Shown here piece by piece: positions 3,001 through 4,689 of a DNA stretch of 4,689 bases. The position numbers are program-made. Source of the stretch: a virus. Taxonomy: Duplodnaviria; Heunggongvirae; Uroviricota; Caudoviricetes. The stretch lies in IMG/VR virus record IMGVR_UViG_2713896777_000007; one strand, given 5' to 3'. Numbering within the stretch: position 1 is the first letter of the stretch; each line of letters opens with the position of its first letter.

Positions 3001-4689
3001 TAATCACGCTTCTCCCCTTCGCCATCAGCCGATTGCCAATCGCTGCTGCCAGGTGATTTTTACCGGTACCAGGTTTACCGCTGAACACGAAGTTTGTACA
3101 TCCGGTCATCAATTCATCGGCAATGGATTTCGCCTGGCTCAGAGCATGGCGCTGACCGTCGTTCTGCACCCGGTAGTTCCCGAATGAGCACTTCCTGTGA
3201 AGCGGCTGGATGCCCGCACGGTTCAGGATTTTTTCAACCCGCACCTGATGATTCAGGCGGTTAATCTCCTCGCTGCGTTTTCGTCCTTCAGCAAGTTGCC
3301 ATTCCCGCCACTCCTCCACCGTCCGGTACGGTGGAACCGCCCCCCTGTGGTGCAAGTCTGCGAATACGTTCAAGAACCCCAACTGCCGCAATGTTTTTCA
3401 TGACACGTCACCCCCTGAATCCCGGCGGTATTTCAGTGTCCGGTTCAGAAATGTGATTCACGCAACGCTGCGCGGGCGAACGCCCCAGGCGGATAACCAG
3501 TTCATCCCATTTTTCCCGGAGTTTTGCCGGACTCATGATGTTTTTTACCCAGAACGAATCCCGCTGGAGACGCCCAAACATTTCACAAATTTGTCTGTGA
3601 GTTCTGCCATCCAGCATCCGCATTGTGCGAACGTCATTGGCCCATGCTGTCCAGTTGGGTTCTTTCGGTCTAGTGATCTCGCCATCATCGCTGGCCGCCT
3701 GCTCGTAAAGACTCACGATTCGTCCCCAGATCCACTGTGCGCACACCAAATCTTCCTGACTTCCCCACTGGCGTTTTTTCGCACTGAACACAACCGCGTC
3801 AGGGTGTCGGGTTAAAAAATCCTGTTCAGCCGTCTGCGGGTCCGGTTGCGAAGCGTCCGGACAAGAAGATCTTTTATCTGACGGCTCAGGTTTTAATACT
3901 GACGGATCGGGGTCAATCATCGCCCCCCTAATCGGCAGTTTGTTATCAACAGTTGATCCATCAAAATTTGACGGGTCAACCGTTGAGGGGGCAATATTTG
4001 ACGGGTCAACTGTTAACGGGTCATTTTTTGCCGGGCTAATTTTTCTTTTCGGTTTATATGACTCACGCGCCGCCGCCGCAGCTGCTTCGAGTTTTTCCAC
4101 ATTAAGCCGATAGATATTGCTTACATTACGCCCACCGACCTTACGCTCTTCCTTCGTCAGCCAGCCCTCTTTCGCCAGTTCTGCAATAGCCGATTTCACT
4201 GTGGATTCACTTCTTGCACCGATCTGACGCCGGATAGTTTCAATGGCAGGCCATGACACGCCCTCGTCATTGCTGTAGTCTGCAAGACGGGCCATAACCG
4301 CCACCCTGGATAAGATCATGCCGGTGAAGGCGCACCCTTCCCAGACAAGACCATGAAGCTTGCTGCTCATAAAACCCCCGAACACCGTGCTTTTAGTGCA
4401 TCACCACAGCATTCCCTGCCGGGCCGCCGCGATTCATCTGGTCATACAAAACAACCGCTGACGCAACAAAATCATCGACATCCTTCACCAGCCGATCCCT
4501 CCGTTCGACGATCTCACGGTAATATTCAGAACTGTGGCTGCGCATACGGGCCACCAGCAAAGGCGGCATCGCCTTTTCGATCGCCGGTAACAGAGCCTGC
4601 ATTTTTTCAACAGCATCAGGGGTGTCTTTATCCAGCCAACGGAAAATTTTCTGGGTATTACGGGCCAGGGCTTCCGGATGGCTGTCGTC

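Follow-up and report, generated by a model that had tools for sequence, protein, structure and literature searches.

A candidate iteron origin of replication within the initiator gene of a lambdoid Escherichia coli prophage

An iteron origin of replication inside the initiator gene is a textbook feature of phage lambda and the Stx phages (PMC7466680). The C-terminal domain of the lambda initiator O recruits the P protein. In the lambda record, four iterons are found at 39034-39118 (residues 117-145 of O), and the AT-rich segment is downstream of them in the sense of gene O. The lambda-type Stx phages 933W and P27 have six iterons; the number varies between relatives, and the extra iterons add residues to O (PMC7466680). 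Distantly related lambdoid initiators each have iterons of their own inside their own gene (PMC8022706, PMC7466680). For the P22-like phages P22 and L the iterons inside gene 18 were inferred from sequence, and phage L has six imprecise 11-bp copies (PMC8022706). Here we consider a tandem array of short dyads in the O-like initiator gene of IMG/VR record IMGVR_UViG_2713896777_000007. The window, that is, the whole analysed stretch of 4,689 nucleotides, corresponds to the replication module in the early right region of a lambdoid prophage of E. coli and is read on the minus strand.

It is likely that the array at 3946-4046, together with an outlying unit at 3913-3923, represents the iterons of the prophage origin. 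Of the features that characterize a lambda-type origin, the following were found here: the position within the initiator gene, at least three dyad repeats beyond chance, and selection on the DNA accompanied by co-variation. Apparently nobody has yet mapped an origin for initiators of this family.

The seven dyads of the array start at 3946, 3961, 3976, 3991, 4006, 4021 and 4036. Each is followed by a 4-bp C/G-rich spacer, and the basic period is 15 bp, or five codons. In array order, the dyads match 8, 8, 8, 7, 7, 6 and 4 of the eight defined positions. There are thus five strong and two weak units, with the quality declining along the array. Tandem Repeats Finder reports period 15 at 3946-4023 (5.2 copies, 68% matches) and period 30 at 3946-4014 (2.3 copies, 79% matches). 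A second repeat search stacked five copies in register, each 15 bp from the next, between 3946 and 4035. The unit pattern TCAANNNTTGANGGG with at most two mismatches has seven matches in the window, all of them within 3957-4035, whereas the mean for shuffled sequences was 1.5 and all 200 shuffles stayed below seven. The repeats noted in a preliminary description of the window are real. The core given there, TTTGACGGGTCAAC, occurs exactly twice, at 3967-3980 and 3997-4010. The TCAAC-N-GTTGA dyads are present at 3946-3956 and 3976-3986, and a third copy at 4006-4016 has one mismatch.

The same description gave a period of 30 bp, which did not hold as the functional unit. The 30-bp unit consists of two alternating 15-bp subtypes, ACn-GTT and AAT-wTT, and dyad symmetry extends to the alternate units TCAAAATTTGA (3961-3971) and GCAATATTTGA (3991-4001). 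Moreover, the period of the whole family is 15 bp: length differences amount to single 15-bp units between near-identical E. coli copies and to 45 bp between Edwardsiella arrays. The idea that 30-bp spacing places the sites on one face of the helix is correct only roughly, as 30 bp correspond to approximately 2.86 turns. Neighbouring 15-bp units are 1.43 helical turns, or about 154 degrees, apart. The unit junction TTGAC-nn-GTCAA is also a dyad, and the half-sites alternate in orientation every 7-8 bp. At the position of the outlying unit, the closest relatives have a full unit, TCAATGGTTGACCCC, and this site is also in an inverted-repeat pair.

The array is translated as pentapeptide repeats (L/S)(T/N)(V/I/F)D(P/G). 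It covers residues 109-142 of the 320-residue initiator, between the HTH_36 domain and the lambda-O-like region, and so it does lie, as had been proposed, between the DNA-binding N-terminal domain and the C-terminal domain of an O-like initiator. The linker peptide TVDPSNIAPSTVDPSNFDGSTVDN had been read correctly, and the DNA repeat dictates the repetitive peptide. Since the period is exactly five codons, a unit can be added or dropped and the frame stays intact. An open reading frame on the plus strand (3940-4113, 57 residues) reads MLSTVDPSKFDGSTVEG... and mirrors the repeat peptide of the initiator; this follows from the palindromic nature of the units and is no evidence of a gene.

Homologs of the N-terminal domain were collected from phage records and from one genome per species, which yielded 86 usable genes from many enterobacterial genera. 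The sample includes Erwinia, Edwardsiella, Morganella, Yersinia, Providencia and Klebsiella, as well as the Shigella phages SfII and SfIV, and phiP27. Three to ten 15-bp units directly follow the HTH domain in 84 of these genes; the remaining two have one and two recognizable units. The larger subfamily (SfII, SfIV, phiNP, YeP1, phiP27 and many prophages) has the unit GAC-nCn-TCA-AAA-TCT encoding D(P/A/T)SKS. The closest relatives of the window gene come from Erwinia, Mixta, Edwardsiella and Morganella, and their N-terminal domains are 73-76% identical to that of the window. Their unit is the same as in the window, yCAA-nnn-TTGA plus CCCC or GGGG, in four to ten copies.

For the analysis of codon usage, units were defined from the protein sequence only, and thus the codon choice had no influence on the sample. 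In the 74 SfIV-type genes, TCA encodes 301 of the 346 first serines (17% in the rest of the genes), AAA 247 of the 248 lysines (63% in the rest), and TCT 183 of the 234 second serines (10% in the rest). At the same time, the median codon identity at conserved four- and sixfold degenerate residues in the N-terminal domains of these genes is only 0.32. In the subfamily of the window, the first residue of the unit varies (S/P/L/A), but all except one of the 54 units have A at the third position of its codon (53 of 54; background 16%), and codon 3 ends in T in every unit (54 of 54; background 28%). Of the positions of the unit, 3 and 9, both third positions of codons, are the most informative, and 13-14, which are first and second positions, the least. 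This is the opposite of what selection at the protein level would predict. These data show that selection acts on the DNA of the array itself, as predicted for iterons.

The type of the core was compared with the two domains of the initiator. Genes with N-terminal domains at least 73% identical to that of the window have the yCAAnnnTTGA core only. At 72% identity and below, the core is mainly of the SfIV type, TCAAAATCTGA, with a mixed array in Klebsiella phage Kp4866-6 (72%). The types of the C-terminal domain (lambda-O-like, DnaD-like, P27-like) assort independently of the core type. Thus in the sampled genes the core tracks the N-terminal and not the C-terminal domain, as would be expected of iterons. 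At the DNA level, similarity of the window gene to other O genes is confined to the C-terminal half and ends at 3875 or 3908, with 86-91% identity over 3410-3875; this half recombines independently. The N-terminal domain and the candidate iterons travel as one module and the C-terminal domain separately, which is the classical lambdoid arrangement.

On the 3' side of the array, in the gene sense, there is an AT-enriched element (3861-3908), which is also the mosaic junction of the N-terminal and C-terminal modules. It was anchored on the DPSV motif, which succeeded in 84 of the 86 genes, and all 84 have this conserved element, GATCCGTCAGTA...GATCCrTCAGATAAAA. The aspartate codon is GAT in 83 of them and the rare valine codon GTA is used in 77; at least two GATC sites are likewise found in 77. 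The median AT content of the element is 65%, compared with 47% for the genes. In the window, the motif GAnCCGTCAG occurs in two copies, 3899-3908 and 3878-3887, and three GATC sites are within 3868-3958 as against 14 in all 4689 bp. The plus-strand sequence GATCTTTTATCTG, a single copy inside this element (3868-3880), resembles GATCTnTTnTTTT, the consensus of the oriC 13-mers. Further downstream, Klebsiella phage Kp4866-6 has the motif GATCCGTCA as a 12-bp tandem repeat in three copies (DPSLDPSLDPSS, initiator codons 154-165). Other relatives have two copies of this motif 18-24 bp apart, so that the motif is conserved and its spacing is not.

The side on which the DNA opens can be read in two ways. 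In the preliminary description the AT-rich stretch lay on the 5' side of the array (4020-4060), the reverse of the order in lambda. The lambda order had been given correctly, the iterons coming first and the AT-rich region downstream, and the stretch is indeed present beside the array. However, it is only 66% AT, overlaps two degenerate in-phase units and equals two nearby segments in nearest-neighbour stability. An iteron origin of the same kind with unwinding at 4020-4060 seems rather unlikely, even though in the window this stretch is slightly more AT-rich (66%; best 40-bp segment 68%) than 3861-3908 (60%) and is the least stable patch near the array at windows of 20-30 bp. The corresponding flank is not conserved, with 35-52% AT in the closest relatives and a median of 50% in the larger subfamily, whereas the 3' element is the more AT-rich of the two in 79 of 80 loci. 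The Lys/Arg codons of the basic segment encoded at 4020-4060 alone explain its A-richness. Finally, the peptide encoded by the AT-rich segment of lambda, DTKDTITKEKRKDYS, aligns in BLASTP with the peptide DPDPSVLKPEPSDKRSS encoded by 3861-3908, that is, on the opposite, 3' side. Thus the lambda-like order, with the AT-enriched, GATC-bearing element distal to the promoter, is probably the better reading.

Two other explanations dispense with an origin altogether. The repeats could matter in the protein only, as a flexible pentapeptide linker produced by replication slippage. Indeed, the segment is of low complexity (P, S, D, N, G), it is situated between two folded domains, nearly all homologs have it in a variable length of three to ten units, and the period is a multiple of three, as slippage in a coding region would leave. 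However, the third positions are nearly invariant across genera while the first and second positions and the amino acids change, and outside the array the synonymous sites of these genes are mostly randomised. Spacer positions vary between the units of one array, and therefore recent duplication or homogenisation cannot explain the fixed core. We consider a linker with no function in the DNA very improbable. Chance or recent slippage as the source of the array was rejected, given the results of the shuffles and the conservation across genera. Alternatively, the array could be a functional DNA element other than an origin: an autoregulatory or roadblock site of the initiator in the transcript of its own gene, a site for an IHF-like or SeqA host factor, or a hotspot of recombination for module shuffling. 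Selection at the DNA level by itself leaves the purpose unspecified, the module junctions 3875 and 3908 are just beside the array, three of the 14 GATC sites of the window are within 3868-3958, and the dyads could form a long hairpin or cruciform (z = -3.6 for the single-strand fold). On the other hand, the repeat type follows the DNA-binding domain of the initiator itself and not a host factor, and the position is exactly that of the proven iterons of lambda. No copies of the array motif exist near the early promoter region or elsewhere in 19 kb of the prophage. A scan of 3700-4300 for promoters and terminators found nothing, which makes an internal promoter on the TTGAC motifs unlikely. A role in recombination would be secondary to an origin and compatible with it. 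A non-origin element is very improbable as the explanation.

Several observations weigh against the iteron origin. A winged-helix dimer would fit awkwardly on contiguous 15-bp units whose half-sites are 7-8 bp from each other, and the 11-bp dyads in a strict in-frame 15-bp period differ from the four 18-bp sites of lambda, which are spaced by 20, 24 and 23 bp. Some features of the family consensus are degraded in the window: GCC replaces GAC in the unit at 3991, and GAG replaces GAT at 3887, so that one GATC site is lost. The element at 3861-3908 is only 60% AT in the window and is no minimum of stability, and the best 40-bp segment of the initiator gene reaches 68% AT, compared with 80% in lambda O. 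In nearest-neighbour stability, 4020-4060, 3863-3902 and 3929-3968 are tied, and none of them is exceptional in the window. The binomial P values for codon usage ignore the relatedness of the sequences, although the contrast with neighbouring saturated synonymous sites is still large. Detection of units for the information-content profile used TCA/TGA as a criterion, a bias which the protein-defined codon tests avoid. Lastly, no description of the origin was found in the literature on iterons, SfII/SfIV/SfV, ydaU/ydaV, replication of Stx phages and the core sequence.

If the array is an iteron origin, the following mechanism may be suggested. The N-terminal winged-helix domain of the product of the same gene would bind the 11-bp dyad cores every 15 bp, and a nucleoprotein complex similar to the O-some of lambda would form on the array. 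The DNA beside it would then open, most probably at the promoter-distal element 3861-3908, in the same order as in lambda. Finally, the lambda-O-like C-terminal domain would recruit the DnaC-like loader encoded at 2660-3391 and the host DnaB. Possible modes of occupancy are a dimer per dyad, a dimer per unit junction, or monomers polymerising along the DNA. It is the sequence from which we infer binding, origin firing, the site of unwinding and the stoichiometry (a dimer per dyad or a monomer per unit). An assembly of a non-lambda type, with a filament or spiral along the DNA instead of DNA wrapped on discrete dimers, is conceivable but improbable.

Like lambda ori, the candidate origin occupies the central part of its initiator gene, with the coding region of the origin-binding N-terminal domain on one side and that of the partner-recruiting C-terminal domain on the other. 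Both also have several tandem sites with internal dyads, and the AT-enriched segment distal to the promoter may be the counterpart of the AT-rich region of lambda. The C-terminal domains are homologous, and in both cases the N-terminal domain and the iterons make one module and the C-terminal domain another (PMC7466680). However, the N-terminal domain of the window initiator belongs to the HTH_36 family, the AT-enriched element has 60-65% AT and conserved GATC sites as against 73-80% AT in lambda, and the presumed partner is a DnaC-like ATPase and not lambda P. The number of units varies, as in the Stx phages, here from three to ten, and the length of the linker changes with it. The Stx phages, unlike this family, have the lambda-type O and iterons, for which binding and origin function were shown experimentally. 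The 11-bp length of the core is the same as in phage L, and in both cases each type of initiator has its own short repeat in its own coding region. However, the initiators and repeats of P22 and L are unrelated to those considered here, the partner in P22 and L is the DnaB-type helicase gp12, and no in-frame 15-bp period or pentapeptide repeat has been reported for these phages. Plasmid iterons are usually 17-22 bp long, are situated outside the rep gene and also control the copy number by handcuffing. By analogy, the array may be likened to plasmid iteron origins such as P1 oriR, pSC101 and R6K, with tandem initiator-binding repeats beside an AT-rich or GATC-bearing opening region (PMC4980987). 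The oriJ/YdaU system of the Rac prophage was rejected as a known relative: the N-terminal domain of YdaU, DUF1376, is unrelated, nothing comparable to the repeat is present, and only the C-terminal tail IPPGFRG is common to both.

This is no new principle; it is an extension of the lambda paradigm to an unstudied family of initiators. The main curiosity is a strictly in-frame, contiguous 15-bp iteron array that doubles as a pentapeptide-repeat linker. Two further aspects, improbable like the filament or spiral, would be new if real. A mechanical coupling would tie the number of binding sites to the length of the initiator linker, since the same bases encode both, and the conserved GATC pairs beside the array would put origin firing under Dam/SeqA control. 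Initiators of this type are very common: they occur in E. coli including O157:H7, and relatives in the serotype-converting phages of Shigella, in the Stx phage phiP27 and in prophages across the Enterobacterales. Knowledge of the origin site and of the important bases would help to interpret prophage induction and in-situ amplification in sequencing data, to construct dv-type miniplasmids from such prophages, like those made from Stx phages on a conditional R6K backbone (PMC7466680), and to study the co-evolution of initiator specificity and origin, written in the bases of the linker.

The features are listed in Table 1. On the minus strand, the O-like initiator gene is followed by a DnaC/IstB-like ATPase gene and then by DUF1627, DUF977-like and DUF551 genes. 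The initiator matches over its full length phrog_391, 'replication initiation O-like' (E 3.5e-115). The 963-nt equivalent in a lambdoid prophage of E. coli O157:H7 is labelled 'helix-turn-helix domain-containing protein' in RefSeq. Copies at least 99% identical to the initiator gene are present in 1,339 complete E. coli genome records, O157:H7 included. In O157:H7 strain F8797 the gene is in a prophage beside ynfA and dicB; YdaS-like and YdaT-like genes stand before it there, and the ATPase gene of the window comes after it.

Table 1. Features of the replication module and their coordinates in the window
Feature	Coordinates	Strand	Basis or remarks
O-like replication initiator gene	3408..4370	-	320 aa from ATG at 4370; mechanical ORF (open reading frame) to GTG at 4385
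N-terminal winged-helix DNA-binding domain, presumed iteron reader	4086..4370	-	Pfam HTH_36
Linker and C-terminal domain homologous to the lambda O C-terminal domain	3471..3914	-	BLASTP
DnaC/IstB-like helicase loader, presumed partner of the initiator	2660..3391	-	Pfam, NCBIfam, PHROGs
Candidate iteron array, seven 11-bp dyads TCAAn-N-nTTGA	3946..4046	.	Tandem Repeats Finder, repeat search, pattern match
Outlying degenerate unit	3913..3923	.	Plus strand TCAATCATCGC; 6/8 defined positions; 33 bp beyond the array
Conserved, moderately AT-rich element with GATC sites	3861..3908	.	Gene sense GATCCGTCAGTATTAAAACCTGAGCCGTCAGATAAAAGATCT...; candidate unwinding or Dam/SeqA-sensitive region
AT-rich stretch of the preliminary description	4020..4060	.	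66% AT; encodes basic segment YKPKRKISPAKN; overlaps the two most degenerate units

The Pfam HTH_36 match is at 4158-4298 (residues 25-71) with E 2.2e-06, above the gathering score, and the DnaD_N match is weak. Among eight homologs, the N-terminal domain has 39 invariant columns. A BLASTP comparison detected no similarity between the N-termini of the initiator and of lambda O, whereas the C-terminal region, lambda-O-like from residue 153, is 35% identical to lambda O over 148 residues (E 3e-26). Pfam assigns HTH_36 instead of Phage_rep_O, and only the C-terminal domain is shared with lambda O. Thus the initiator is O-like in architecture, in agreement with phrog_391, but does not belong over its full length to the sequence family of lambda O. 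A search of PDB sequences with the N-terminal domain gave no meaningful match and no solved homolog. A single-sequence AlphaFold2 model of the initiator, intended to show a disordered linker, was unusable (mean pLDDT 37.7).

The loader gene product matches Pfam IstB_IS21 (E 1.5e-19), NCBIfam PRK12377 (E 7.5e-141) and DnaC, and phrog_50, 'DnaC-like helicase loader'. Among the sampled loci, with flanks of 1.5 kb only, a DnaC-like gene is directly downstream of the initiator in the E. coli window, in phiP27-type phages and in a few loci of Providencia and Serratia. In most relatives the initiator is followed by other genes, for instance, methylases or small hypothetical proteins. The C-terminal tail of the initiator (3408-3431), IPxGFRG or ENSGFRS, is common to initiators with unrelated N-terminal domains and differing types of the C-terminal domain, an example being the O-like protein of the window and Rac YdaU (DUF1376). 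Possibly this tail is a short peptide for docking to a partner of host or phage origin.

A natural plasmid replicon based on an initiator of the window type was also considered and rejected, as the matches in plasmid collections are prophages in large replicons or misassigned chromosomes. One circular record of 15,977 bp, NZ_CP148542.1, was deposited as a plasmid; it has only the part of such a prophage from cI to lysis, and no typed replicon is present in it. A frameshift directly behind the iteron array splits the initiator gene, and hence the record is uninformative on replication. The record may stem from an excised dv-like replicon, from the assembly of DNA amplified in situ, or from an error of sequencing. 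Elsewhere in the window, a run of 88 N (masked or unresolved) at 1111-1198 breaks a small minus-strand open reading frame, 1097-1342. The DUF1627 gene (1873-2634) is intact in the window, whereas its copy in the F8797 prophage of O157:H7 is marked as frameshifted by RefSeq.

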